Both the position numbers and the translations under genes were made by a program. From Kiritimatiellia bacterium (GTDB taxonomy: Bacteria > Verrucomicrobiota > Kiritimatiellia > RFP12 > UBA1067), in NCBI GenBank assembly GCA_050949565.1, contig JBMNFY010000013.1:1-50067 (forward strand): a stretch of DNA of 50,067 bases, written 5' to 3'. Of the stretch, positions 2 to 22,070 are shown piece after piece. How positions within the stretch are numbered: the first letter of the stretch is position 1; each line of letters opens with the position of its first letter. Under the pieces are notes generated by a model. That model searched no databases. It was not told where the DNA came from and was given only the letters and a program-made list of their open reading frames with translations.

Positions 2-3000
2 GCCGAAGACGATTGGGGTACACTCGCCAACTGGTTCAACCCCTTCAACGGGCGCACCTACACCGGCACCGGCGGCTCGCTGGGCTATAACCCGCTGACC
101 GACGCCGTGCTCATCGGCGACAGCGGCACCGCTCCCTCCGATTCACTCGCGCTGATCGCAGCCGGTGACGGCCGCTGGATCGGCCACGACATTGAGGTCG
201 CCGACGCGGGCGCCAGCGTGACGCTCGGCATGACAGCCGGCTCGGCCATGTTCGCGGGTACCCTCACGCTGCATCGCGGTATCGCACTCGCCGGCCCGGC
301 CGACGGTATCTTGATCCTCAACACCATCGCTTTTGCCGACGGGTTCACCGGCCCCAGCATCACCGCAGTTGACGGTCTCGGCGCTCTTTGCATTGAAGGC
401 GAACTGCCCGCTTCAGACGCGCTCGCTGTCGGCGCATGCGCATTGAGCTTCGGCAGCCGCACGGTCAAGACCCAGACCCTTCAAGCACTGACGCTCGGCA
501 CACCGGGTGCCGCCGGTGCCTTGGATGTCGACTTCGGTCCCGGTGCCAACGACATCCTCCATGTAACCGCCGCGGACGGCCTGACGCTCAGCAACACCGT
601 GGTCAACCTGTTCTACGCCGGAACCGGACAACCCTTCGCCGAGCCCGGCACCTACACGCTCTTCACCTACCAGGGTACGCTCGACGGTGACGCGGCGTTG
701 CTGTCGGTCGGCAACCCGCAGGACGGCGCGAGCTATGCCTTTGCCAATGACACCGTCAACCGCCGCGTGACCCTCACCATCACCGGCGCGTCGGGCGGCA
801 TCGCCGCTGTTTGGACGCATCCGGAAGGCGGTGCGTGGGCTACCGGTGCGAACTGGGACGGCGGCACGGCACCAAACGGTGCGGGCATCGTACCGCTCTT
901 CGGTCTCGCCATCACCAATCACGCGACTGTCGACACGGGCGCAGGCTACACTGTCGGCGGACTGACCTTCAACAACGCTGCCTACGGCTACACCCTTGGA
1001 GGCAGCGGCGGGCTGACCTTCTCGCATGCCGGCGAGCCTTCGACCGTCTCCGTGATCGCCGGCTCGCACACCCTGAACACCGCGCTCAACGCCCCGGACG
1101 GGCTGAACGTCACGACCGCAGATGACGCGCAACTGGCGCTCGGTCCCGACGCCACCGTCGCCGCCGCGCTCACGCTTGCGCAGGGCACGCTTGAGTTGCA
1201 GGGCAATGCCACACTCGACGGTGCAGTCGATCTGGCCGACGCCACCATGCTGCGCGTACGCGCCACCACCAACGCCGCCATCGGCACCCTGAGCGGCACG
1301 CCCTCGTCCGTCGTGGCGCTGACCGGCACCGCGCCCGCGCTGACGATCAATCAGGCCGACGACGAGACCTTCGCCGGTTCCTTTACGGGCGGCACCGACG
1401 CCCGCATGACCAAGACCGGTAACGGTACACTGGGCCTGAGCGGACTGTTCTCACCGCTTGCCGGGCGTATCGCGCTCCAGGGCGGCACGCTCGAGACACG
1501 TTCGGCCACACTCTTTGCCGCCGCCGACCTCGCCGCCGCCAGCACGCTGCGCGTCGCGGCACCGGTCACGAACGGCCTCACCGGCTTCTTCTACAACGTC
1601 ACGCCCAACACCAATGCCTTCTGGACGCTGTCCGGCATGGAGAGCCACTTCGCGTCGCTGACGCCCAATTTCGCCGCGATCAGCGGCGCGAGCAGCAACC
1701 TCTTCGACTTCGGCGTGGGCACACCGTATGCCATCGCCGGCCCGTACACGTCAAGCGGCAGCCGGGCCTTCTACTTCGAGGCCGTGTGGCGCGGCACAAT
1801 CACCGTGCCCGCCAGCGGCACGTATGTCTTCGGCTGCTACGGTGACGACGGTTTTCTGCTCGCCATTGACGGACGTCAGGTGCTCGCCCGCAACGCGTGG
1901 CACGCCTCGTGGCGGGAAGGCACCGTGACCCTTGAGGCCGGACGCCACGACATTGTGCTCGGCTATTTCCAACTGAGCGGCGGCGGCGGCATCCGCGTGC
2001 GCGTGCGCCTGCCCGGCCAGACCTCGCCCGTTGCGCTGCCGAACGCCTGGCTGACCCCCTACTCGCAGACCGGCGCGCTCGCGGGCGGCGGCACGGTTAC
2101 GTTGCCGACAGCCAACGCCCCGCTGTGCGCGCACGTCAAAGCCGGCGGCGCACAGTTCGGCGGCACCCTTTCCGGTGTCTCTGGCACATGGTTCGCTAAG
2201 AGCGGCAACGGCTTGCAGAGCCTTGCGGGCGGCGGGGTCAACGGCTTCGCCGGCGACGTGGATGTCCAAGCAGGCATTCTGGCTTTCGACACGGACGAGC
2301 TGGTCGATCATGCAGCGCGGCTCTCGGTGCGGGCGGGTGCGACCCTCGCACTGGCCGGCACGGAAACGATCGGCGCGCTCACCGGCGACGGTACCCTCGC
2401 CATCGGCGGCCACGTCTACGTGGTGCCTTTTGAAGGCGACGCAGATTGCGGCATCTCCGCCGACAAAACCTACACGCACCTGCTGGACTTCCCGGCCAAC
2501 GGCAATCCCGCCACGATCAACGGGGTGACCTTCATCGCCGCCGGCATGAGCGGCAGCTCGGGGGACTACACCTGGTCGACCGTCAATCCGCCTACCGGAA
2601 CGTGGAACGACCCCCCCAACGACAGCACACGCACGGGCATTGATCGGCTACTCTGGGACTTCATCTACGGGGTTGACGAATTCACGACCACGCTCGCGGG
2701 GCTTACACCGGGCAAGGCTTACGAGTGCCGCCTCTACTTCCGTAACTTCAATAACAACCCGCGCCGCACGACCTTCACCTTTACGGCCGGTGCGCATCAA
2801 GTGGGCGAGCTTTTCTACAATCCCGACAGCGGCGTGAAAGGCAGCCGGAGTTGGATGGGTTGCCGCTACACGGCGGATGCATCCGGCTCCCTCGCGATCC
2901 GCGTCGTGTCCCACGTCAGCACAGACAGGTGCCACTTCTATGGGCTCTCCAACGAAGAACTGCCCAGCACCGCCGCGCCTACGCTGATTGTCGCTCCGGC

Positions 3001-4492
3001 CGCTGCGGCAGAGGCGCGCTTCACGGGCAATGTCACCGGACTCGGCACGTTGGTCAAGGATGGCGATGGCACGCAACGTTTCGGCGGTACCATCGCATTG
3101 CCCACCCCGCTGACCGTGCAGGCGGGTACGGCTGTGCTCGAACAGGGCGCAGACCTGCCGGGCGGAGCCGCCGTCGCGGCCGGCGCGACGCTCAGGGTGC
3201 CGCTCGGCGGCGTCACGCTCGGTGCGATTTCCGGGGAAGGCACCTTCGAATTGACCGGCACTGCCGACTACGCCATCACGAACGGACCGCACTTCGTAAA
3301 GATCACGGGCGATGCGGACAGCGGTATTTCGCGCGACAAACGCTACACCCACCTGCTCGACTTCGGCAGCAGTACCGCGCTCGCCACCGTAAACGGCGTC
3401 ACCTTCAATAAAGAGCGGGCCGTCAGCGGTCCATTCTGCGGTCAGAGCTGGAGCAACGCACCGGCATCCTCGTCCCATTCCGGCGGCAACACCGGCAACA
3501 TCGGGGTGCCGCCCAGCCAGGGCATCTACAACCTGATTAACGACTTCTGTTACAACGGCCCCTACGCGCCCTCTGTCTTCGCCCTGACCGGACTGACCAC
3601 CGGCAGGTGGTATGAAGTGCGTTTCTATCACCGCAAATGGGAGGACAGCAAGGCGCGCGACACGACCTTCACCTTCGACCCGGACGGCACGGGCCCGATC
3701 AGTGACGCCATTTCGTTCAATCCCGACAGCCCGGCCGGAGCGTTTAACGATAACTACCTCGCTTACCGCTATTTCGCGCTGACCGACCGGCTGGACATCA
3801 CCGTCGCCTGCCCGAACCCGGACAGGTACCACATCTACGGACTCAGCAATGAGGAGGTGCCGGACGCGCTCGGCGCCGCCACGCTCGCCCTCGCGGATGA
3901 CTGCGTGTTCAGCGGCATGGTGACCGGCAGCGGCGGTCTGATCAAGAACGGCGCGGGCGCACTCACCGTCACCGGCGTCGGCGACGCCACCGGTGCGCTG
4001 ACCGTCAGCGGCGGCGCGTGCGGCGTGGCCGAAGGCGGGCGCATCACCACCGGTCCAGTCAATGTGCTAGCCGACGCGACGCTCTTCGGTCACGGCCAGA
4101 TGGGCGGTCCGGTCAACGTGGCCAGCAACGCCTGGCTGCAAGGCGGTACTGCCGCTGCATGCGGCACGCTGGCGGTGGGCGGCGATCTGACGCTCGCGCC
4201 CGGCGCGAGCATCGCCTGGCGTTATGCCGACGGCGGTGCATCCGACACCATCACCGTCGCGGGCACGGCAAACGTACCGACCAACGGCTTGGTGCAGGTT
4301 GCCTCGCTCACGCCAGGACTGATGCCGCCCGCCAAGCGGCCGCTCATCTCCTCGTCGACCGCGATCAACGGTCCGGATGACCTCAGCGGCTGGACCGTCG
4401 AGGGTGTTGAAAACGCCAGCTTGCGCTACAGCGATGACCGCACCAAGATCTACTTCTTCACGCCACGCGGCAGCCTGTTGTTGTTGCAATAA
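2..4492 (+). CDS. Large secreted/surface protein (5'-truncated by window edge): autotransporter-associated beta-strand repeats, PA14 domain, two copies of an uncharacterised ~180-aa domain, no C-terminal beta-barrel
   Basis: Frame is open from nt 2 (AEDDWGTLANW...) into the 107..4492 ORF. Repeated LxKxGxGTLxL motifs. PA14-like WRGTITVPASGTYVFGCYGDDG...LEAGRHDIVLGYFQLSGGG at ~1580-2060. Ends ...FFTPRGSLLLLQ*. Confidence 0.85.
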   Translation, partial: AEDDWGTLANWFNPFNGRTYTGTGGSLGYNPLTDAVLIGDSGTAPSDSLALIAAGDGRWIGHDIEVADAGASVTLGMTAGSAMFAGTLTLHRGIALAGPADGILILNTIAFADGFTGPSITAVDGLGALCIEGELPASDALAVGACALSFGSRTVKTQTLQALTLGTPGAAGALDVDFGPGANDILHVTAADGLTLSNTVVNLFYAGTGQPFAEPGTYTLFTYQGTLDGDAALLSVGNPQDGASYAFANDTVNRRVTLTITGASGGIAAVWTHPEGGAWATGANWDGGTAPNGAGIVPLFGLAITNHATVDTGAGYTVGGLTFNNAAYGYTLGGSGGLTFSHAGEPSTVSVIAGSHTLNTALNAPDGLNVTTADDAQLALGPDATVAAALTLAQGTLELQGNATLDGAVDLADATMLRVRATTNAAIGTLSGTPSSVVALTGTAPALTINQADDETFAGSFTGGTDARMTKTGNGTLGLSGLFSPLAGRIALQGGTLETRSATLFAAADLAAASTLRVAAPVTNGLTGFFYNVTPNTNAFWTLSGMESHFASLTPNFAAISGASSNLFDFGVGTPYAIAGPYTSSGSRAFYFEAVWRGTITVPASGTYVFGCYGDDGFLLAIDGRQVLARNAWHASWREGTVTLEAGRHDIVLGYFQLSGGGGIRVRVRLPGQTSPVALPNAWLTPYSQTGALAGGGTVTLPTANAPLCAHVKAGGAQFGGTLSGVSGTWFAKSGNGLQSLAGGGVNGFAGDVDVQAGILAFDTDELVDHAARLSVRAGATLALAGTETIGALTGDGTLAIGGHVYVVPFEGDADCGISADKTYTHLLDFPANGNPATINGVTFIAAGMSGSSGDYTWSTVNPPTGTWNDPPNDSTRTGIDRLLWDFIYGVDEFTTTLAGLTPGKAYECRLYFRNFNNNPRRTTFTFTAGAHQVGELFYNPDSGVKGSRSWMGCRYTADASGSLAIRVVSHVSTDRCHFYGLSNEELPSTAAPTLIVAPAAAAEARFTGNVTGLGTLVKDGDGTQRFGGTIALPTPLTVQAGTAVLEQGADLPGGAAVAAGATLRVPLGGVTLGAISGEGTFELTGTADYAITNGPHFVKITGDADSGISRDKRYTHLLDFGSSTALATVNGVTFNKERAVSGPFCGQSWSNAPASSSHSGGNTGNIGVPPSQGIYNLINDFCYNGPYAPSVFALTGLTTGRWYEVRFYHRKWEDSKARDTTFTFDPDGTGPISDAISFNPDSPAGAFNDNYLAYRYFALTDRLDITVACPNPDRYHIYGLSNEEVPDALGAATLALADDCVFSGMVTGSGGLIKNGAGALTVTGVGDATGALTVSGGACGVAEGGRITTGPVNVLADATLFGHGQMGGPVNVASNAWLQGGTAAACGTLAVGGDLTLAPGASIAWRYADGGASDTITVAGTANVPTNGLVQVASLTPGLMPPAKRPLISSSTAINGPDDLSGWTVEGVENASLRYSDDRTKIYFFTPRGSLLLLQ
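644..1297. repeat. Long inverted-repeat arm shared with 46932-47585
   Basis: By eye, 644-815 equals the reverse complement of 47414-47585 (172 bp) and 1079-1297 equals the reverse complement of 46932-47150 (219 bp). Confidence 0.9.
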
Positions 4493-4519
4493 ACATCAAA
4501 CGTGTACCGAGGAGCGGGC

Positions 4520-5161
4520 ATGGAACGACGAGTAAAGCGCGAAGTTGAAATCACGTTGCACAGCATCAACATACCGGTCACCGGTGCGGGGCTCGACACC
4601 ACGACCTCGCACCTGCTGACCACCGACTTGGTGTGGCCGCGGGTGGGTGTGGCACGTAAAAGCGCCAGTCAATCCTGCACGTTGCAGGAGGGTACCGCTG
4701 ATTTTGAAACGGCCAACTGGGGGCGGCGCATCCTTTTCAAGGAGACGGTCGAGGGGCGTTTCGCGCTTGCCGTGACAGTCACCGAGGCACTGGACGATGA
4801 GGAACTGGAGAAGATCCTGCGCTTCTGGGCCGGCGCGGCACTCGCGATCGGTGCCGATGCCGTGGACAGCGCGGCCGGCCCGCTCGGCGACCTGGCGGCC
4901 GCGCCGCTGGAGTACGCGGCCAAAGCGGTGGCCAAGTATCCGGGCGCGACGCTGCTGGCCGAAGGGCTGGCGGAACTGGACGCAACGGATTTCCCGCCAA
5001 GCGGCGGCGAACGGCTGCTGACCGTGAGATTGGTCGCGGCCCGCAAGCTGCTGCGCGTCACGCGCCGCACGGTCAACGGCCGTTCGCGTGTCACGCGCAA
5101 GACCCTGTTGGAGAAGGGCGCGGACAACGGCGAGGTAACTCTGGCCGTGCGGACGCTGTAA
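4520..5161 (+). CDS. Hypothetical protein (~213 aa)
   Basis: ATG 4520 after GAGGAG RBS, GC3-rich codons, directly downstream of the large gene. No recognised family. Confidence 0.7.
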   Translation: MERRVKREVEITLHSINIPVTGAGLDTTTSHLLTTDLVWPRVGVARKSASQSCTLQEGTADFETANWGRRILFKETVEGRFALAVTVTEALDDEELEKILRFWAGAALAIGADAVDSAAGPLGDLAAAPLEYAAKAVAKYPGATLLAEGLAELDATDFPPSGGERLLTVRLVAARKLLRVTRRTVNGRSRVTRKTLLEKGADNGEVTLAVRTL

Positions 5162-5255
5162 TAATCGGCTGGAAACAGGGGGCACGCGAGTTTAGTGCGT
5201 GGTTTGCGTGTGCGCGGTCGGGAGCGCGAGCGTCCCCTGAAAATCAAAAACACGA

Positions 5256-5285
5256 TTGACAATGCCTGCCGGCAAGGCGTATGCT
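5256..5285 (+). promoter_or_regulatory. Putative sigma70-type promoter for the peptidase locus
   Basis: TTGACA (5256-5261), 18-nt spacer, TATGCT (5280-5285), with an A-rich tract upstream. Confidence 0.5.
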
Positions 5286-5641
5286 GACGGCACGATTTCA
5301 TAAAGGGTAATGTGTGTTGAGGGTACGGTACGTTGTTGTTCTCGCGATGACAACGAGATGTGACCAGAGGTGAGTGGCCGCGCGCGTTGCGGTCAGGCGT
5401 TTTACAGACAGTCCTGCACATTTTGATTTTGCGCTTACGCGCATTAACGCTTCATCTGAAACCACCAAGTTTAAGTTAGGAAGCGAGATGCACGGGGACG
5501 CGCCCGCTCGGGCGCGGCCTCTGTCTCGTGTTTCCTAACAGGTGCTTGGTGGTACCTCAGATGAGGCACAGATTGGGGTTCGCGCCTTTTTGTGGGGGTG
5601 CGCGGAGCCCGGTGCGGCACGGGCGGCGAGGAGATGGCACG

Positions 5642-8380
5642 ATGGATGGAAATCTTTTTTGCGGCGGAACGGATGTCGGCGGAACGGCGTTTATAGGACT
5701 GCCGGGCATTTTGGTTGTGGCGGCGTACGCGCTGTGCCTCGCGGTGTACATGTGGGAGCGGGGTGTGTTCCGTGGGGGCTGGGCAGACCGGCGGGAGACA
5801 TGGGCGTCTTGGTCGCCCGTGTTGCGCATCCTCATGGTGGGTCTGCTGCTGACCTGTGTGAGGGACGGGCGTTGCACGAAGCCCGGCGGCGGGACGAACA
5901 ACCCCGCCGCCATCGCCCAGCAGACGGCCACGCAGGAAGGACAGGCGGCGGGAGCCCCGGCCGCCGCGCCGTCAGCCCCGTCGAACCAAACGTCTGGCGG
6001 CGCTGCCGCCATGCCTGCGGGGGCAGGCGCGCCCGCCCCCGCGCTTCCGACGCTGGCGGACGGCACCAACTGCTGGTGGATCGCCGAGGGGCGCAGCCCG
6101 GCGGACACGGACATGGACGGCATGCCCGACGCTTGGGAGCGCATCTTCGGGCTTGACCCGCTTGATCCTTCCGATGCCGCCAGCGACCACGACCGCGACG
6201 GGCTGACCGCGCTGGAAGAGTTCCTGAACAGGACACACCCGCAGCGGCGGGACACGGACGGCGACGGCATGCCCGACGCCTGGGAGACGGCGCACCGGCC
6301 CTTCCTCTGTCCCTGGCTGCCGGACGACGCCCTGGACGCGGATGAAGACGGGCTGGACAACTTCCACGAGTACGCGCTGGGCTGCGATCCGGGCGACCCA
6401 GACTCCAATGATGACGGGCGGCCCGACGGCGAGGAGGCGGACGCGGGCGTGAACCCCCTCCTTGCGCATGCGGACTGGGCGGCCTACGGCACGGCCCTGT
6501 TCTCCGTGCGGGTTGACGGGCTGCGCGCCGCGCGCCGCGCGGGCGTGTCTGTCGGGCATATCACGCACTCGGGGGTGCAGGAACGCTCTTACGCCATAGC
6601 GGCGGGCTATCGCTACCCGCTGACGGTCGTCGATCTCGACCCCAGCAACACCGTCCCCTGCACGGGCACGGTGCGCATCACCCATGACAACGCCACGTTC
6701 ATACACGGCTTCACCAATGAGTTCCCGGTGACGTTCCCGCTCTCCACCAACGCCCCGGCCTGTCCGCCCGGCACGGAGATGACCGTGGTCGGCATCGATC
6801 TCGACATCCCCGACATCATCTGCCTCGGCCCGGACAACAGCGCGTCCTTTTCCGTGTCGGCCAGCTTCGTGCCCGACGGCGAGGAGATCGCGGGGCAACC
6901 GCAGTGGTCCGTCAGCGGCGGGTCCGCCACGCCGGAGAGCGGCAACATGGAGACATGGGTGAACGCGGTTTTCCCCGCGCCCGCGCAGCAGGCCCAGGGG
7001 GCACCCGCACCGATGGGCGCGGGCGTGGAAACAAACGGTTCGCCGTCGATCACGGCGGAGATCGGCGACAGAACCGTCACGCGCACGTTCGAGCCGTCCA
7101 CGCCGGACGCCCCCGACGAACCAGACCCCTGGGACGGCCGGCGCTTCATCGCCAGCCCCTTCAGCGTCACGGAACCGGTGTCGCCGACCTACGCGCTCGC
7201 GCACAGCAGCAATGCCGTGACGTTCGCGTGGCACGGGCACCGGGAGGACACGGTGCTGGAGTGGAGCATCAGCGGGGACGGGCCGCGCTTTATCAAGGAC
7301 GGGCAGGAGGTGTCCAAGGTGACACGAGACCTCTCGGTCTCAGTCCTGCCGCGCGGGACGGTTTCAAACTTCAAGATCAGGGCGAAGGCCCGGACATTCA
7401 CGGGCGCGATCGTCACGCGGCAGACCGAACTGCGCGTGATCACGATCGTCGCCGAGCCGGTCATGTCGTTCACGCCCGGCGCGCCGGTAAATCCCAGCGG
7501 TCTCTTCGTCGGCGGCTCCGCAACCTTCCAGATCACATTTTCATCGAACGTCAGGGCAGAGGATGTGCAGTGGTCCGTTGCCGACGGCAAAGCCGCGCTC
7601 GCCTTCGGTCCGCAAAGCACCGCGCCCCAGATCGTGGTCGGCCTCGCGCCGGGCACGGAAACGCTGGCCGCCAATATCACGCACTACGTCGGCCCGCCGC
7701 CGCAATTCAATTTCGAGGTGTACACCCATGCCGACCCCATCCCCATTCATTTCATGTTCATCTGCGACACGAACGGCTTCCACGCCGGATGGGCCTCAGC
7801 CATTCCCGGCCTCATCACGAATGTCAACCACATCTACCGCCAGGCGGGAATGAGCTTTACTCAAGCCTCCGTCGCGTACACGAACAACCAAGAGTGGTAT
7901 CAGCATTCGGACAGCAATCGGATTCAAGAGGCTATCGTTGATTCCCGCACGTTTAAGAAGGGGCTGGAGGTCTACATTGTCTCAAGGCTCGCGCCGGAGG
8001 TCGCCGGAAAAAATTGGACGGATCGAGGCATCCTGATGGTGGGCACCGGCTCTGCCCGCACCCTCGCGCATGAGATCGGGCACCAGTGCGGGTTGTTTGA
8101 CATCTACACCTCCGTGCTCGGCATGCCTCCGCTGACGATGCCGCTTTCACCGGATCATTTGACGCCGGCCGACTGGAACAACGGGCCGGGGCCGCAGGAA
8201 TACTATCCGCGCGGGTTGCCGCTGTCGACTGTGATTGAGCGGTGCCTGATGTTCGGGTACACGTCGGGCGGTTATGACGTGCCCATGGGCCGGGTTAAAG
8301 GGTACAATGTGAGCGGGATATTTCGTTCCATCTCGGTCGGGGTACGGGGGATGAACCGCACCCCGGCTCACGATCTATAA
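5642..8380 (+). CDS. Membrane-anchored/secreted protein with thrombospondin type-3-like Ca-binding repeats and a C-terminal zinc metallopeptidase (HExxH) domain
   Basis: N-terminal hydrophobic segments, Ala/Pro linker, DTDxDGMPDAWE/DxDxDGL repeats (~6100-6460), and TLAHEIGHQCGLFD at ~8060-8100 with a later CLM Met-turn-like motif. Start uncertain (ORF track gives 5528). Confidence 0.75.
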   Translation: MDGNLFCGGTDVGGTAFIGLPGILVVAAYALCLAVYMWERGVFRGGWADRRETWASWSPVLRILMVGLLLTCVRDGRCTKPGGGTNNPAAIAQQTATQEGQAAGAPAAAPSAPSNQTSGGAAAMPAGAGAPAPALPTLADGTNCWWIAEGRSPADTDMDGMPDAWERIFGLDPLDPSDAASDHDRDGLTALEEFLNRTHPQRRDTDGDGMPDAWETAHRPFLCPWLPDDALDADEDGLDNFHEYALGCDPGDPDSNDDGRPDGEEADAGVNPLLAHADWAAYGTALFSVRVDGLRAARRAGVSVGHITHSGVQERSYAIAAGYRYPLTVVDLDPSNTVPCTGTVRITHDNATFIHGFTNEFPVTFPLSTNAPACPPGTEMTVVGIDLDIPDIICLGPDNSASFSVSASFVPDGEEIAGQPQWSVSGGSATPESGNMETWVNAVFPAPAQQAQGAPAPMGAGVETNGSPSITAEIGDRTVTRTFEPSTPDAPDEPDPWDGRRFIASPFSVTEPVSPTYALAHSSNAVTFAWHGHREDTVLEWSISGDGPRFIKDGQEVSKVTRDLSVSVLPRGTVSNFKIRAKARTFTGAIVTRQTELRVITIVAEPVMSFTPGAPVNPSGLFVGGSATFQITFSSNVRAEDVQWSVADGKAALAFGPQSTAPQIVVGLAPGTETLAANITHYVGPPPQFNFEVYTHADPIPIHFMFICDTNGFHAGWASAIPGLITNVNHIYRQAGMSFTQASVAYTNNQEWYQHSDSNRIQEAIVDSRTFKKGLEVYIVSRLAPEVAGKNWTDRGILMVGTGSARTLAHEIGHQCGLFDIYTSVLGMPPLTMPLSPDHLTPADWNNGPGPQEYYPRGLPLSTVIERCLMFGYTSGGYDVPMGRVKGYNVSGIFRSISVGVRGMNRTPAHDL

Positions 8381-15100: not shown

Positions 15101-17249
<2,149 letters not shown>

Positions 17250-17271
<22 letters not shown>

Positions 17272-17939
17272 GCCAGCGCCTCAATCGCCGCAACCGCAGC
17301 CTCGGTGTCGGCGAAGTCCGGCAGCACCAGGTCAGCGCCAGCCTCGGCCAGCGCGTCGGCCGTGACCCAGCCGGTAGCCACCGCCACGGCCTTGAGCCCG
17401 TTGGCGTGCGCAGCGTGAATGTCATTCGGAGTATCGCCGATCAGCACACGTACCGGAGTATCGGCAGGCGCGCGCACGCAGGCCAAAGCGGCGATCTCAT
17501 TACGTTCGTGGTGATCGTCGCCATACGCACCGAAGAGAAAAGCGTGGTCGATGTCTATGTGACGCAGCTTGCTCCAAGCTGTGGCGCGCACATTGCCGGT
17601 GACCAGCCCGAGGGCGTATCCGCGGTCGACCAGACGCGCGATCAGTTCCGGCACGCCCGGATAGACCAACGGGCGCGTCTCGTCAAGCGCGGCATCAATC
17701 GCATGCGCCAGACGCAGAAAAAAATGTTCCTCGCGTGCCGGGGTACTGTCCACACCACACTCCGCCGCCATCTGGCGCACCACATTAGAATCGGTTGCAC
17801 CCACAAAAGTCAGACCAGCGAGATCGGGATAAGGCACCCCGTAGGCAGCCTCAAAAGCGACGCCGAACGCCCTCCGCCCCACGCCGCGGGCGTAGAGCAA
17901 AGTGCCGTCGATATCGAACAGAAGGGCAGCGCGTGTCAC
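17250..17939 (-). CDS. HAD-superfamily hydrolase (phosphoglycolate phosphatase-like)
   Basis: Motif I FDIDGTL, motif II LVTGN, motif IV IGDTPNDI. Confidence 0.9.
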
Positions 17940-17959
17940 GGGGCGAATACACTATCATA

Positions 17960-18060
17960 GAGGCTCTTGCAAAACACCTCGTAGCATGGGCGTCCCGCCC
18001 ATGAAACACGGGCAAGATGCCCGTGCCACACCTGCAATCAAGGGGTTTTGAAAGAGCCTC
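17960..18060 (+). mobile_element. ~100-bp MITE/REP-like element, copy B
   Basis: Terminal inverted repeats GAGGCTCTTGCAAAAC / GTTTTGAAAGAGCCTC (15/16 match) around two GC-rich palindromes. Confidence 0.85.
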
Positions 18061-18137
18061 GGTAAAGAGGGTGAAAATTAGGTGTTAAAGGTGAGATTGT
18101 ACCATAATTGCACAGGAAAAAGCGATAGGGACAAGCG

Positions 18138-18198
18138 AAAAAAATTTTAAAAAAAATTGCTGGACGGGGTTGACAAACTTCGCCTTATCCACTATCCT
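18138..18198 (+). promoter_or_regulatory. Strong sigma70-type promoter with UP element
   Basis: A/T tract 18138-18158, TTGACA 18170-18175, 17-nt spacer, TATCCT 18193-18198. Confidence 0.8.
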
Positions 18199-18204
18199 TG
18201 AGTC

Positions 18205-18685
18205 AAAGATTGGGACGGGTGTTTCGATCTTCTGGTTAATCTCACGGAAGGAGGCGATTTAAGGTTTTATCTTTTCGAAGCTCCGTAGCCCATGCGGGCC
18301 GTCAGACTTGAATCTTGATAATGGCCGTGGGCGTGTGGAAATCGACTGATCGGGCGATAGGCCCACACAGACGACGAGGGGCTTGCCGGACTTAGGAAGT
18401 GACCGGGCAACAAGCAGGGCGGCTTTCCGCCAGAAACAGAAAACGAAGTTGCCGGCGGATCCCAGTACGAACGTCAGGTAATGAATCACTCTTCGCTGAT
18501 TGATAACACATCGGGACATTGACACCGTAGCGTGAGAGAAGGTAAAGGCGACACATAACCCCGGACGCTATGTTGGCGGATCGGTGACATTGAGTAAACC
18601 AATACGAAAGGACGTGTTTTCTGAACACCGAAGTAGTATGCGGAGACGCATAGGGGTTCCCTCAGGCAAGAGGGAACCCTTTTTT
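18205..18685 (+). ncRNA. Candidate large structured non-coding RNA (~480 nt), family unrecognised
   Basis: Promoter and terminator enclose a segment with no + strand ORF of 60 aa or more and back-to-back helices, including a GNRA-capped hairpin. Confidence 0.6.
18652..18685 (+). terminator. Rho-independent terminator
   Basis: GGGTTCCCTC-AGGCAA-GAGGGAACCC followed by TTTTTT. Confidence 0.9.
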
Positions 18686-18788
18686 ATACCTTTAAATGCA
18701 CAATAGGGAATTCAACGTGAAACGAATGGTGACGACCGCGGTTGCGGAATGCGTAATGTCGGGTGCGGGGCGAGCGGCCACCGCAGAA

Positions 18789-21188
18789 ATGAAGGTGCAT
18801 GTGTTCGTGATTGCCTTGGCGGCTAGCCTTCTGGCGAATGCGGGCCCCATCTCCGCTGAAAAAGTGCTGGTGTATGGCCAGGAAGCATCTCTCATCCACG
18901 AAGGAGCCATCCTTCTGGCGGATACGTTCAAAACCTCCTCCGATGTGTGGGGAAAAGTCAGCAATTATGCAAACGGGCTCAAGTTCACATATGGCGATGA
19001 CGGACTCACCATCAGCAACAACACGGGGGGAAAAGATTGCGATACCGCATGGGGGCTTACCTCCAAGCCTCTGATTTTGCCCAAAGACGTATCTGCTTTT
19101 ACGCTGGCTGTGACAATGAGGTCAGCTCAGAAATTTTTTGATGCCAAAGGGGGCGATTCATATTCAAACAAAATTCGCTGGATGGATGACGAGGGCAATG
19201 AGGTTTGCCCTTCCACCCAACTCAAATTTGATACGCAGGCGGGACGGTTCATAACAACCACGCTTTCCGGCCTCATTCCTGTAAACGCGACCCGAGCTGT
19301 CCTTTCCCTCGGAGCCGACTCCCCGAACATCATCGCGGCAGCCGAATCGATGACGCTCCGTGACGTGAGCTTTCAGGTCTACAATCCTAAAAACGCGACA
19401 TACGCGACATCCGGCACAATGATTTGCGGCCCCGTCAACGCCAAGAGCGGGACCTTAACCTGGTCGGCTGAGGTACCTGAGGGGACCAGCCTGTCTTTGC
19501 AGGTTGCGACGTACAAAGAAGGTGAGGCCCTGACTTTTGTCGGCCCGGACGGAACAGAAAAGAGCAGCTTCACCCAGAGCGGCACGGCCATCCCAAAGGC
19601 GCTGACCCAAGGCAAGGTTCTGGTGAGGGCGACATTCAGCGGCAACGGCAAGGCGACGCCCGTGTTACAGTCTGTGAAAGTGGCCGGTCAGTCCGCCGGT
19701 CGTTTGGCTCTGAGGTCAACTGCCATTGATCCGATGACACTCAAGGTGGTCCAAAAGACACGTTCGCCCCTCAAGGAATTGGACGTACCGCTACAAGTGC
19801 TGGTGACCGATGATTATCCAATCCGCTGGGACACGCTTAAGCTGGTTCTGGACGACAAGGACATCACGCAAAACGTCATTAGGGAAGGCGGCCTGTTGAC
19901 CTTCTTGCCGATGGAGGGGCAATTCACAGAAGGTGTCCATGAGTTCATTTTGACTTTGAAAAATCCAATCAATAAGTCGTTGGCCATCAAACAGGCGTTT
20001 TTCAGAGGAACACGGACTGTTCCTCAGGCACACCGCGTGACATTGCGCGATGATGGGATGACCTTGGTGAACGGCAAGCCTTTCTTCCCGATCGGCATCT
20101 ACTCGGTCTGTAAGCGCGAATTCAACGGCATGAATCTTGACAAGGCATTCAAAGACTTGAAGGCGGTCGGCTTCAACTTCGCACATACTTACGGAACAAC
20201 GCTTGGGGCTGAAGGAGATGAGTTCATAGCTGCCGCAGAAAAGTATGGCTTCAAGCTGTTTATCTCCCCGGGAAACATGCAGAACATCGCCAAACGCCTA
20301 GAAAACCCAGGCGTGTTGGCCTGGTACATCGGCGACGACACATCGGCCCACCAGCGGCCAGAAGAGCTGATCGCCAAGAACACCAACATCAAGCGCGTAG
20401 ACCCCTATCGTTTCACTTGTCAAGCAGATGCGATCGGCAACATGGACGCATCCAATTATTTCAAGTACATCGAAGGCACGGATGTGTTTCTGCCAGAGAT
20501 TTATCCTGTCCACGAAGACACCCCGGAGACCGCCCGGAACTGCGTTGCCAAGGTTATTCGGGACATGAAGGTTTTCCATAGCGATATCAAGCGGTATCAT
20601 GCAGCCCAAGTGAAAGCGGGCAAGACTCCAGAAGTGAAAGGCTGCTGGCCCATCATCCAACATTTCCAAGGCTGGGGCTGGAAACGTTTCCCGACGCGAG
20701 AAGAGTTGCGCGCCATGAGCTACGCTTCCATCGCCGCTGGCGCGCACGGCATCACGTGGTACACCTACGGGGGCTTCCCGCATCCGGAAAAAGATCCGCC
20801 TCGTATAGACTACGGCATCACCAGCTCGCCGAAGGTGTGGGGAGAGATCACTGAGATTGCAAAGGAACTCAGCGGCCTGCAGGAGGTGCTTTGCGCGCGA
20901 AATGTTGAAGTGCCTGTTTTCAAGGTGGCAGCGGGGCCTGACAAGGATGTGCTAGGCAATGCTTCTCTGACCGTCATGGCCAAAAGGCATGACAGAGAAC
21001 TCTATGTGTTTGCCGTAAACTCAGTGCTGGAGCGGATTTCGGCAACGTTTGAGTTTGAACACCTTGTCGGTGTCAAAGAGCATTTGACGGGTAAAGACAT
21101 CGCATTTACAGGCAAAGGATTCAGCGAGGATTTTGAGCCGTACGGCGTCAGGATTTTTGTCGTGAGGATCGGCGGCCAGGAGTTGTAG
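18789..21188 (+). CDS. Secreted multi-domain glycoside-hydrolase-like protein (N-terminal beta-sandwich domains, C-terminal TIM-barrel-like domain); family not assigned
   Basis: Signal peptide MKVHVFVIALAASLLANA. VNGKPFFPIGIYS...GFNFAHTY...LAWYIGDD...PEIYP...GAHGITWYTY resembles clan GH-A-like barrels. Lys-rich and lower GC3 than neighbours. Confidence 0.6.
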   Translation: MKVHVFVIALAASLLANAGPISAEKVLVYGQEASLIHEGAILLADTFKTSSDVWGKVSNYANGLKFTYGDDGLTISNNTGGKDCDTAWGLTSKPLILPKDVSAFTLAVTMRSAQKFFDAKGGDSYSNKIRWMDDEGNEVCPSTQLKFDTQAGRFITTTLSGLIPVNATRAVLSLGADSPNIIAAAESMTLRDVSFQVYNPKNATYATSGTMICGPVNAKSGTLTWSAEVPEGTSLSLQVATYKEGEALTFVGPDGTEKSSFTQSGTAIPKALTQGKVLVRATFSGNGKATPVLQSVKVAGQSAGRLALRSTAIDPMTLKVVQKTRSPLKELDVPLQVLVTDDYPIRWDTLKLVLDDKDITQNVIREGGLLTFLPMEGQFTEGVHEFILTLKNPINKSLAIKQAFFRGTRTVPQAHRVTLRDDGMTLVNGKPFFPIGIYSVCKREFNGMNLDKAFKDLKAVGFNFAHTYGTTLGAEGDEFIAAAEKYGFKLFISPGNMQNIAKRLENPGVLAWYIGDDTSAHQRPEELIAKNTNIKRVDPYRFTCQADAIGNMDASNYFKYIEGTDVFLPEIYPVHEDTPETARNCVAKVIRDMKVFHSDIKRYHAAQVKAGKTPEVKGCWPIIQHFQGWGWKRFPTREELRAMSYASIAAGAHGITWYTYGGFPHPEKDPPRIDYGITSSPKVWGEITEIAKELSGLQEVLCARNVEVPVFKVAAGPDKDVLGNASLTVMAKRHDRELYVFAVNSVLERISATFEFEHLVGVKEHLTGKDIAFTGKGFSEDFEPYGVRIFVVRIGGQEL

Positions 21189-21275: not shown

Positions 21276-22070
21276 ATGAGGTGCAAAGCGGTATTGGCGG
21301 GCATGGTATGTGCGGCAGGGTTGGCGGGTCTGGGCGCTAAAGCGCAGGAAGCGACCGGACCGCGCGAGTGGATTCAGATCAAGACCTATGTCTGCGGCAA
21401 CGTGGCAAAGCGGGAGGCGCTGGTGCAGGTTTTTGACCGGGCATTGATTCCCGCATTGAACCGTCAGGGTATCCGCAAGGTCGGCGTGTTTTGGTCAGAT
21501 GCCGAGGTGAATGACGGCAACGCCGCCTATGAGACCCGGGTTGTCGTGGTGATCCCGCATCCGGACGGCGCCTCGTTTGCCGGGATGGATGATCGGCTGC
21601 TGGCGGACGCGCAGTACATGAAGGATGCCGCGCCGCTCTTCAGCGCGCCGATGGCCGATCCGTTGTACGACTCCTGTTCAAGCGCGCTATTGCGCGGCTT
21701 CGCAACCTGTCCGCAGGTGCGGCAGGTGACCGACGCGCCGGAACGTTTACTGCAGCTCCGCATTTACAACAGTTACACGATTGAGCGCAACGCCAAGAAG
21801 ATCGCGATGTTCGAAGGCGGTGGCGAATTGGCCATCTTCCGTACGTGCGGCATGGAGCCGGTCTTTTTCGGCCAGGGGCTGGCAGGCGACCAATTGCCCA
21901 ACCTCACCTACATGTTAGGGTTTGCCGACAAAGCGGCCAAAGTGGCAGCGTGGAAAACCTTTGTCAACCATCCGGACTGGAAGAAGCTCAAGGTGGATCC
22001 GCAATACAAGGACACGGCAAACAAGATCACCAACATCCTGCTGCGCCCGTCCAAAGGCTCGCAACTGTAG
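21276..22070 (+). CDS. NIPSNAP-family protein, exported
   Basis: AAGGAG RBS, signal peptide, LQLRIYNS...PNLTYML...AWKTFVNHPDWKKL...ILLRPSKGSQL. Confidence 0.85.
   Translation: MRCKAVLAGMVCAAGLAGLGAKAQEATGPREWIQIKTYVCGNVAKREALVQVFDRALIPALNRQGIRKVGVFWSDAEVNDGNAAYETRVVVVIPHPDGASFAGMDDRLLADAQYMKDAAPLFSAPMADPLYDSCSSALLRGFATCPQVRQVTDAPERLLQLRIYNSYTIERNAKKIAMFEGGGELAIFRTCGMEPVFFGQGLAGDQLPNLTYMLGFADKAAKVAAWKTFVNHPDWKKLKVDPQYKDTANKITNILLRPSKGSQL

Follow-up and report, generated by a model that had tools for sequence, protein, structure and literature searches.

The 50,067-nucleotide (nt) window analyzed here is the whole stretch of DNA taken from contig JBMNFY010000013.1 of a Kiritimatiellia bacterium (assembly GCA_050949565.1; a genome of 4.66 Mb, 92% complete, referred to as the source genome). 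Positions 18170–18685 of its plus strand hold a promoter-to-terminator unit without a conserved reading frame, which lies between a gene for a HAD hydrolase and an open reading frame (ORF) of 830 codons. A first-pass annotation had read the unit as a stand-alone gene for an abundant, large, structured noncoding RNA (ncRNA) of an uncatalogued family. The comparative analysis described here supports that reading, and the coordinates and outline given to the unit were right. Among the individual observations, the unit, the promoter, the terminator, and four helices held up; six other helices, the folding energy, and a glycoside hydrolase (GH)-like label for the downstream gene did not.

Transcription Signals of the Unit

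Transcription of the unit would start from a sigma-70-type promoter at 18170–18198 (plus strand), composed of TTGACA (18170–18175), a 17-base spacer, and TATCCT (18193–18198). It agrees with the consensus at 10 of 12 positions and is the sole promoter-like site in the interval 17500–19200, for which shuffled sequences yield 0.9 such sites. The UP element annotated in the first pass corresponds to an A/T-rich tract at 18138–18160 (plus strand), upstream of the −35 box; its sequence suggests this function, and a comparable tract occupies the matching place in most of 10 aligned homologs. At the other end, an intrinsic terminator (18652–18685, plus strand) consists of a stem (18653–18662 with 18671–18680) followed by a T-run. 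The hairpin has 12 pairs, 7 of them G-C, and a 6-base loop, and it precedes TTTTTT. Judged from the position of the −10 box, the 5′ end of the RNA should be at about 18205, and the 3′ end would be the U-run of the terminator. The predicted RNA of ~480 nt (18203–18685, plus strand) coincides with the block that is conserved in alignments A1 and A2.

Homologs in One Kiritimatiellia Family

Homologs were surveyed with BLAST in 221 genomes of the source family, the source genome included, where the element is single-copy. A first sample had found it in 9 of 24 other genomes of the family and in 0 of 16 genomes of other families. The full survey gave matches in 23 of the 221 genomes, of which 21 were full-length and 2 extended over only 22–27 nt. 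The full-length homologs come from about 11 genera, share 67–97% DNA identity, and contain many invariant blocks in the alignments. A pattern built from invariant 3′ columns was then searched in one genome each of 185,579 species and in metagenome contigs. It matched 24 places among the species, 20 of them in the same genomes that BLAST had found and 4 being chance matches without further similarity, together with 43 metagenome contigs, 35 of which are true relatives. A covariance model of a 136-position core found the RNA in 0 of 98 genomes of other families in the order and in 0 of 146 genomes outside the family in a phylum-wide sample, the best 22 candidates being scored per genome, so that weak relatives could be missed. 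These sequence searches place the RNA in a single Kiritimatiellia family and only in some of its genera.

Conservation within this set follows the limits of the unit. The arrangement TTGACA-17-TAnnnT at an equal distance and the closing terminator were kept in all 21 genome homologs, the source genome included, and beyond the terminator the homolog sequences are unrelated. A conserved promoter and terminator with flanks that are not conserved, the general mark of a stand-alone ncRNA gene, were therefore found in 21 of 21 genome homologs. After removal of sequences that were ≥97% alike, 37 distinct sequences remained (36 orthologs and one paralog, L009) and formed alignment A2, in which 96.7% of the terminator cells are paired.

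The paralog comes from a relative with a 6.3-Mb genome (G020) that holds extra copies of the RNA. L009 (contig C13) is full-length and divergent, with its own promoter and terminator and without the Shine-Dalgarno (SD)-like tract described below. L012 (C66) is a truncated 5′ half followed by a hairpin, an SD sequence, and a lysine-rich ORF of 37 codons, and L013 (C30) is a degenerate copy with no clear promoter. The genera that carry the RNA have mostly larger genomes (2.3–6.7 Mb, most at least 3.5 Mb), whereas large genera without it (g39, n = 117; g16, n = 33; g17, n = 13) range from 1.6 to 3.5 Mb among the genomes listed. This pattern suggests either that streamlined lineages lost the RNA or that one subclade gained it.

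Covariation and a Nested Fold

A2 was screened for stacks in which pairing persists while both partners change, and the helices retained make up a model of 87 pairs. The model was compared with controls in which the partners were slid by 1–3 columns and with 500 shuffles. Standard pairs filled 91.5% of the cells in the model versus 39.8–47.4% with slid partners. Changes on both sides affected 40 pairs (20–27 with slid partners) and 116 cells (32–58), and the covariation score was 0.189 (0.044–0.082). None of the 500 shuffles reached the observed value on any of these measures. A2 thus contains the compensatory changes expected of a structured ncRNA gene, and covariation among homologs, proposed in the first pass as a check, was recovered. 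G-U pairs are frequent on the plus strand (for example, UG in 24 of 37 sequences at one P2 pair). These common pairs would be A-C on the minus strand, which identifies the plus strand as the folded one. The minus strand alone gave a folding z-score of −2.22; this value was not used as evidence, and it does not outweigh the orientation of the promoter and terminator or the G-U pattern.

According to the model, the RNA would adopt a nested fold made up of a 5′ hairpin (P1), a linker, a core closed by P2 and P4, two hairpins (P10 and P11), and the terminator, all read on the plus strand. In the model, P4 encloses the short hairpin P5 and an extended, irregular rod (P9-P6-P7-P8) interrupted by large internal loops that are conserved, and a conserved stretch between P10 and P11 is left unpaired. 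P1 (18206–18232) joins AAGATTGGGA to TTTCGATCTT. Individual folds of the 37 sequences place a hairpin on the conserved 5′ arm in about 29 by our count, with matching changes on the 3′ arm (such as ACGAT..ATCGT for AAGAT..ATCTT). The core is closed over a long range by P2 (18267–18545), in which 18267–18276 (TTATCTTTTC) pairs with 18536–18545 (GAGAAGGTAA); 97.8% of its cells are paired, with 2 pairs changing on both sides and 7 on one. P3 (18288–18332) is a three-part hairpin (18288–18292/18328–18332, 18297–18300/18323–18326, and 18302–18307/18312–18318) of variable length that is deleted in 2 relatives. It lies in a poorly aligned region with 73–80% of cells paired, and 12 of its 15 pairs change on both sides. 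The second long-range helix, P4 (18335–18525), brings 18335–18342 (GTGGAAAT) together with 18518–18525 (ATTGACAC). It is paired in 90.5% of cells and changes on both sides at 7 of 8 pairs, one of which is UA in 19 sequences, CG in 10, and UG in 5.

Within P4, the hairpin P5 (GGGC/GCCC, 18352–18364) is 98.6% paired, and a GC pair becomes AU in 5 sequences. The rod begins with P9 (18368–18498), where 18368–18378 (CAGACGACGAG) faces 18489–18498 (CTCTTCGCTG) with one bulge and one mismatch. Of the P9 cells, 94.8% are paired; double changes affect 4 pairs, and paralog L009 shows compensation at 2 positions. P6 and P6b (18383–18481) comprise 18383–18387 (TTGCC) with 18477–18481 (GGTAA) and 18389–18391 (GAC) with 18473–18475 (GTC); together they have 86.4% of their cells paired and double changes at 7 of 8 pairs. 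In two metagenome sequences, L092 and L093, 4 of the 5 P6 pairs are swapped (TTGCC/GGCAA to CCGTT/AACGG). P7 (18407–18452) pairs GCAAC (18407–18411) with GTTGC (18448–18452) between large conserved internal loops, GAGGAAG.GACC and CGGATCCCAGTACGAA. It is 99.5% paired but nearly invariant, so that its counts lend little covariation support; its sole double change (CCAAC/GTTGG in L087) was read by eye, the aligner having gapped the 3′ column. The rod ends in P8 (GGCGG-CTTT-CCGCC, 18418–18431), with 91.9% of cells paired and six sequences that seem unpaired only through misalignment of loop length. On the 3′ side, P10 (18561–18584) has an outer part (CCGG/TCGG) and an inner part (CGCT/GGCG) that are 95.9% and 90.5% paired, with 4 pairs changing on both sides. 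P11 (TATGCG-GAGA-CGCATA, 18637–18652) carries mostly a GNRA loop, is 90–100% paired, and changes from UA to AU in 6 sequences.

Four helices of the first-pass annotation are kept among the 37 relatives, namely the hairpin at 18288–18332, GGCGG/CCGCC (18418–18431), TATGCG-GAGA-CGCATA (18637–18652), and the terminator. Six local helices that it had drawn give way to the long-range helices of the model. All six are present in this sequence, but few or none of their cells change on both sides in the relatives. Only 54% and 76% of the cells of ACGGA/TCCGT and GTGTGG/CCACAC are paired there. The corresponding values are 72% for AATCA/TGATT, 27% for ACATA/TATGT, and 50% for TCGGTG/CACCGA. The three parts of a hairpin at 18381–18415 are 86, 65, and 42% paired, and 5 of its cells (0 + 3 + 2) changed on both sides. 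Other approaches were set aside. The consensus that RNAalifold drew from the raw MAFFT alignment was wrong in part (503–510 with 531–538, and the covarying P11 broken) and was replaced. A G-test with average product correction (APC) over all column pairs was dominated by phylogenetic signal and alignment noise and was discarded. Pairings of GGAG/CTCC, GCTCCG/CGGAGC, GGGA/TCCC, and GAAAG/TTTTC, seen by eye in A2, were inconsistent and were left out of the model.

Coding Capacity

The alternative that the conservation reflects a small protein gene, either on the plus strand after an SD-like tract or on the minus strand in open frames of 70–160 codons, was examined in A2. The plus strand does contain a perfect SD sequence, and stop-free stretches of 68–161 codons occur on the minus strand in 37 of 37 sequences. 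The first-pass annotation had noted that the body lacks a plus-strand ORF and that its AGGAGG is not followed by a start codon, and both statements are accurate. The longest plus-strand ORF within the unit has 40 amino acids, and GGAGG at 18250–18254 is followed by CGATTTAAGG, which holds no ATG, GTG, or TTG; the ATT-TAA found there is not conserved. Indels relative to the source sequence in the conserved body disregard any frame, with 333 of 367 runs not being multiples of three, and the longest ORFs sit at differing positions, their starts and ends varying between sequences. On the minus strand, amino acid identity falls below DNA identity (76% vs. 85%, and 45% vs. 68%), and the ORFs have no Pfam match above cut-off, the only one being a chance match of 14.3 bits. 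The plus strand is rich in purines (56% G+A), which would account for the open minus-strand frames. No conserved small ORF, which the first pass had named as the finding that would speak against an ncRNA, was found in the 37 relatives, and the conservation is explained by compensatory changes of paired bases. A small protein gene is accordingly extremely unlikely.

Representation in RNA Libraries

Sequences from the locus were looked for in RNA libraries. In the 17 RNA runs listed, which come from 14 coded studies (digesters, sludge, wastewater, and comparable habitats), 0.34–0.47 of the sampled words of a 1201-nt stretch were recovered; the RNA makes up 0.40 of that stretch. In run X1, contig pieces on the element had a word depth of 950–6337 versus 2.7–4.1 for those on the adjoining genes. 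The respective values were 8409 versus 5.5–10 in X4 and 1529–3597 versus 43.6 in X5. Contig depth on the element was therefore 35- to 2000-fold that of the adjoining genes. The tabulated pieces had zero other letters, except for the X4 element piece with 4. Summed bin depths reached 10^4–10^5 across 18392–18514. In the four runs that were mapped, bins at 18064–18186, the promoter region, had a depth of 0, and most bins after 18679 were near 0; missing cover is at most a weak hint, and these values were not used to place the ends. High expression of the RNA is strongly supported, although the contigs are no proof of a discrete 480-nt species, and the abundance proposed in the first pass is reflected in very high contig depth in the metatranscriptomes of three studies. 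The RNA appears to be among the more abundant non-ribosomal RNA (non-rRNA) transcripts of its host organisms in anaerobic-digester and sludge metatranscriptomes.

A separate signal lies just upstream, between the HAD gene and the promoter, where a palindrome-rich repeat of ~100 nt occupies 17960–18060 (and also 15121–15223). The copy at 17960–18060 gives 294 BLAST hits over 19 contigs of the source genome and, by its sequence, looks like a repetitive extragenic palindromic (REP) or miniature inverted-repeat transposable element (MITE)-like element. Its repetition explains the high RNA-library depth and the many differing loose ends at 17941–18063.

Neighboring Genes

The next gene, in the same orientation, encodes a secreted NIPSNAP-domain protein in 25 of 37 loci (21 of the 33 whose downstream flank reaches 600 nt or more and 4 with shorter flanks), and a HAD hydrolase gene lies divergently upstream in 15 of 30. 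In the source genome, the 830-amino acid ORF (18696–21188) follows the RNA directly, and the NIPSNAP gene lies beyond it at 21276–22070. The larger gene, which appears to have been inserted between the RNA and the NIPSNAP gene, has no Pfam match, and the "GH-like" label is not sustained. The 12 loci where the NIPSNAP gene is not next comprise 2 with the 830-amino acid gene (the source genome and a close relative) and 10 with other genes. Of these 10, 3 share a gene of 445 amino acids, 1 has a convergent gene, and the others have various genes. The 12 loci represent at least 6 downstream contexts, and in every locus the promoter, the terminator, and the invariant blocks of the RNA are intact.

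This neighborhood bears on whether the element could be a very long cis-acting leader or attenuator, riboswitch-like or sensing a protein or the ribosome, for the downstream gene, which would ancestrally have encoded a secreted double-NIPSNAP protein. The frequency of the NIPSNAP gene downstream on the same strand is in keeping with such a role, as are a low-depth contig from run X13 that crosses the terminator and the truncated G020 copy L012, which stands upstream of a hairpin, an SD sequence, and a small ORF. The check proposed in the first pass, whether homologs keep the same downstream gene, gave a divided answer, however: the NIPSNAP gene is kept in 25 of 37 loci, and an intact RNA is followed by another gene in the remaining 12. 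Conversely, the NIPSNAP gene of one relative (G045) is preceded by an upstream region that is short and ordinary and holds no such RNA. Relatives keep the strong terminator, and the screen of A2 revealed no conserved anti-terminator, the only candidate (18378–18384 with 18654–18660) being mostly G-U. The depth on the element, 35- to 2000-fold that on adjoining genes, also argues against a leader, and at 480 nt the element exceeds known riboswitches in size. A leader is thus unlikely, and the HAD/NIPSNAP neighborhood is an ordinary conserved gene order.

Carriage on a mobile element or prophage, as is known for many copies of GOLLD and ROOL, or a guide-type RNA of a transposon nuclease would account for the several paralogs in G020, and the 294-copy repeat lies immediately upstream. 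Against this, the element is single-copy in the source genome and syntenic across genera (HAD gene upstream in 15 of 30 loci, NIPSNAP gene downstream in 25 of 37); a pattern search of IMG/VR and searches of 50,697 phage records and 72,556 plasmids gave no match; and no transposase, nuclease, or reverse transcriptase gene adjoins the RNA. An origin as mobile cargo, or a role as a guide, is very unlikely.

Comparison with Known RNA Families

Searches with Rfam 15 gave 0 matches at the gathering score across the whole window. At E ≤ 10, the element had only five sub-threshold matches, all on the minus strand (14.5–18.7 bits vs. cut-offs of 43–85), and the loci of 8 homologs and 3 paralogs gave 0 matches at E ≤ 0.1. 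According to the Ribonanza preprint, MISL is an Rfam family, and the negative result therefore covers it. The suggestion of a possible new family is thus upheld by the lack of any Rfam 15 match, including MISL, OLE, ROOL, and GOLLD. Searches of the literature on Kiritimatiellia ncRNAs, MISL, GOLLD/ROOL, and metatranscriptome ncRNAs, which did not extend to supplementary lists of candidate RNAs, yielded no description of the RNA.

The first pass had also set the element apart from transfer-messenger RNA (tmRNA), RNase P RNA, and 6S RNA. Canonical genes for RNase P RNA (RF00010), tmRNA (RF00023), and 6S RNA (RF00013) were found elsewhere in the source genome with 208.8, 175.2, and 66.6 bits, and BLAST of the element against its rnpB, ssrA, and ssrS gave nothing beyond words of 8–14 nt. 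A likeness of GAGGAAG.GACCGGGC to the CR-I motif of RNase P RNA was considered and dropped, as neither BLAST nor the covariance model lent support. The tmRNA model in addition gave four weak matches of 19.3 bits each, spaced exactly 729 nt apart, at 1053136–1055410 of contig C17 of the source genome; they suggest a tandem array with a tRNA-like element.

Among universal RNAs that might have diverged beyond recognition, signal recognition particle (SRP) RNA was the most open candidate: models RF00169 and RF01854 found nothing in the source genome, and simple scans for the domain-IV motif there were empty. RF00169, however, drew a blank in all 41 genomes of the order that were searched, 31 of them without a match to the element. 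Either the search prefilter misses this RNA or the SRP RNA of the order is unusually divergent, and the blank reflects the search or the clade and says nothing about the element. The element occurs in only 21 of 221 family genomes, whereas SRP RNA is universal, and at E ≤ 10 cmscan of the element lists no SRP, RNase P, tmRNA, or 6S model. We regard a divergent universal RNA as highly improbable, on a par with a small protein gene.

The closest parallels are the large orphan ncRNAs (OLE, ROOL, GOLLD, raiA, HEARO, and MISL). Like the element, these are several hundred nt long, with many covarying helices that include long-range ones, and have their own promoter and terminator, a narrow lineage range, and high abundance. 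Their models do not match the element (at E ≤ 10) or its homologs, and the element lacks a conserved partner gene of the kind known for OLE (oapA and others). The RNA is a new family of this large orphan kind. Large bacterial RNAs with many conserved helices are rare, and earlier cases proved to be ribozymes or scaffolds of ribonucleoproteins; ROOL, GOLLD, and OLE form self-assembling complexes.

Two regulatory RNAs offer partial likenesses. 6S RNA and Ms1 are also abundant, stable RNAs, and the core of the element is a long rod (P4-P9-P6-P7-P8) with a large, sequence-conserved internal loop. By analogy, a rod with a large bubble might serve as a 6S-like decoy of RNA polymerase. The element is, however, about 2.5 times longer, has extra domains, does not match RF00013, and coexists with a real 6S RNA elsewhere in the genome (66.6 bits). 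With CsrB/RsmZ it shares several conserved A(N)GGA motifs (AAGGAG, AAGGAT, GAGGAA, and AAGGAC), two of them ~13 nt apart, although its architecture is complex and conserved in sequence in contrast to the repetitive hairpins of CsrB. A role as a CsrA sponge was rejected on finding 0 matches to PF02599 in the source genome (92% complete).

Weighing the Interpretation

We assign a probability of roughly 0.8 to the interpretation that 18170–18685 (plus strand) is an independent gene for an abundant, stable ncRNA of ~480 nt whose family is not in Rfam. Several points weigh against it. The NIPSNAP gene, where present, begins about 100–760 nt after the terminator, and a leader would show the same arrangement. 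The four mapped runs (X1, X4, X5, and X13, from four studies) were chosen for holding the stretch, and RNA libraries can contain DNA. The metatranscriptome contigs cover 18217–18666 in 3 studies, and contigs cannot show ends, strand, or length. The one contig of X13, a thin run, has a depth of 4.6 and continues past the terminator to 18802. The 87-pair model was partly derived from the same sequences, which contributes part of its excess over the slid controls, and several rows of A2 are close relatives, so that the counted cells are not independent events. The check on folding energy suggested in the first pass turned out negative: the minimum free energy of the single plus-strand sequence is ordinary (−158.9 kcal/mol vs. 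a dinucleotide-shuffle mean of −152.7; z = −1.01), with 16 of 100 shuffles folding at least as well. As the folding energy is unexceptional, the evidence for structure rests on comparison with the relatives.

Purine Tracts Complementary to 16S rRNA

Three purine tracts of the RNA resemble SD sequences. The first, at 18246–18254 (plus strand), reads GGAAGGAGG here and GAAAGGAGG in most relatives and is complementary to the 3′ end of 16S rRNA, which in the source genome ends in ...GGATCACCTCCTTTCTA (also given as ...CACCTCCTTTCTA). Of the 37 sequences, 31 carry GAAAGGAGG without a change and 36 carry [AG]AAGGAG, the exception being paralog L009. GAAAGGAGG occurs only 15 times in the 4.66-Mb genome. 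The host does use SD sequences: upstream of 2895 long ORFs, they show a 10-fold peak between −13 and −10. The second tract, GAAAGGACGTG (18606–18616, plus strand), lies inside the conserved stretch CGAAAGGA.GTGTTTTCTGA. A pattern that includes it was matched by all 20 other genome homologs found by BLAST; the metagenome relatives were collected with a pattern that holds this tract, so their agreement there is by construction. Read by eye, GAAAGGAnGTG (18606–18616) complements the 16S 3′ tail at 10 of 11 bases. The third tract is the 3′ strand of P2, which faces a pyrimidine strand resembling the anti-SD sequence.

The 5′ tract has a counterpart in STAB-SD of Bacillus thuringiensis cry3A. As described for cry3A mRNA (PMC4113751), STAB-SD is an SD-like 5′ tract without a translation start that pairs with the 3′ end of 16S rRNA, and the untranslated tract binds the 30S subunit and blocks 5′-to-3′ decay. 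The tract of the element likewise lies close to the predicted 5′ end (~45 nt), with no start codon after it. The two differ in setting: STAB-SD belongs to the mRNA leader of a Firmicute and blocks RNase J1, whereas the tract of the element belongs to an ncRNA of a bacterium of the Planctomycetes-Verrucomicrobia-Chlamydiae (PVC) group. The cry3A tract also reads GAAAGGAGG.

By analogy with STAB-SD, the following mechanism can be proposed. The strong sigma-70 promoter would drive synthesis of the RNA and the intrinsic terminator would end the transcript, which, as a stable RNA, would then bind a cellular partner and act in trans. Binding of some kind is suggested because the RNA is stable, abundant, and intricately folded and has long invariant unpaired stretches. 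The 5′ tract GAAAGGAGG would pair with the 3′ end of 16S rRNA, so that a 30S subunit docks without translating. The docked subunit would protect at least the 5′ end of the RNA, as in STAB-SD, or docking may be the function itself, and the conserved loops of the core may bind a protein or a complex. Docking of the 30S subunit at the 5′ tract is the mechanism we prefer, tentatively and with the odds still against it. Some findings do not favor it. The 5′ tract is predicted to be of average accessibility (unpaired with a probability of 0.42 vs. 0.39 for the whole RNA), because the tract can also pair with the pyrimidine strand of P2. Paralog L009, although full-length, lacks the tract, and the C-terminal domain of RNase J was not found in the source genome. 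The more specific proposal of a dedicated ribosome-docking RNA, built on two near-invariant single-stranded tracts complementary to the anti-SD sequence (GAAAGGAGG and GAAAGGAnGUG) with a third in P2, is rather unlikely on present evidence.

Implications

Kiritimatiellia are little studied, and we found no paper on their ncRNAs. With 37 distinct sequences and clear long-range covariation, the RNA is well defined; it can be entered as an Rfam family as it stands and lends itself to structure probing or cryo-EM. A concrete, testable hypothesis comes from the near-invariant tract that complements the anti-SD sequence and has no ORF behind it. Should docking prove true, the RNA would capture or park 30S subunits or would sense free 30S by switching P2. 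It would then represent an anti-SD decoy acting as a global control on translation initiation, and no regulator of this type is known from bacteria.

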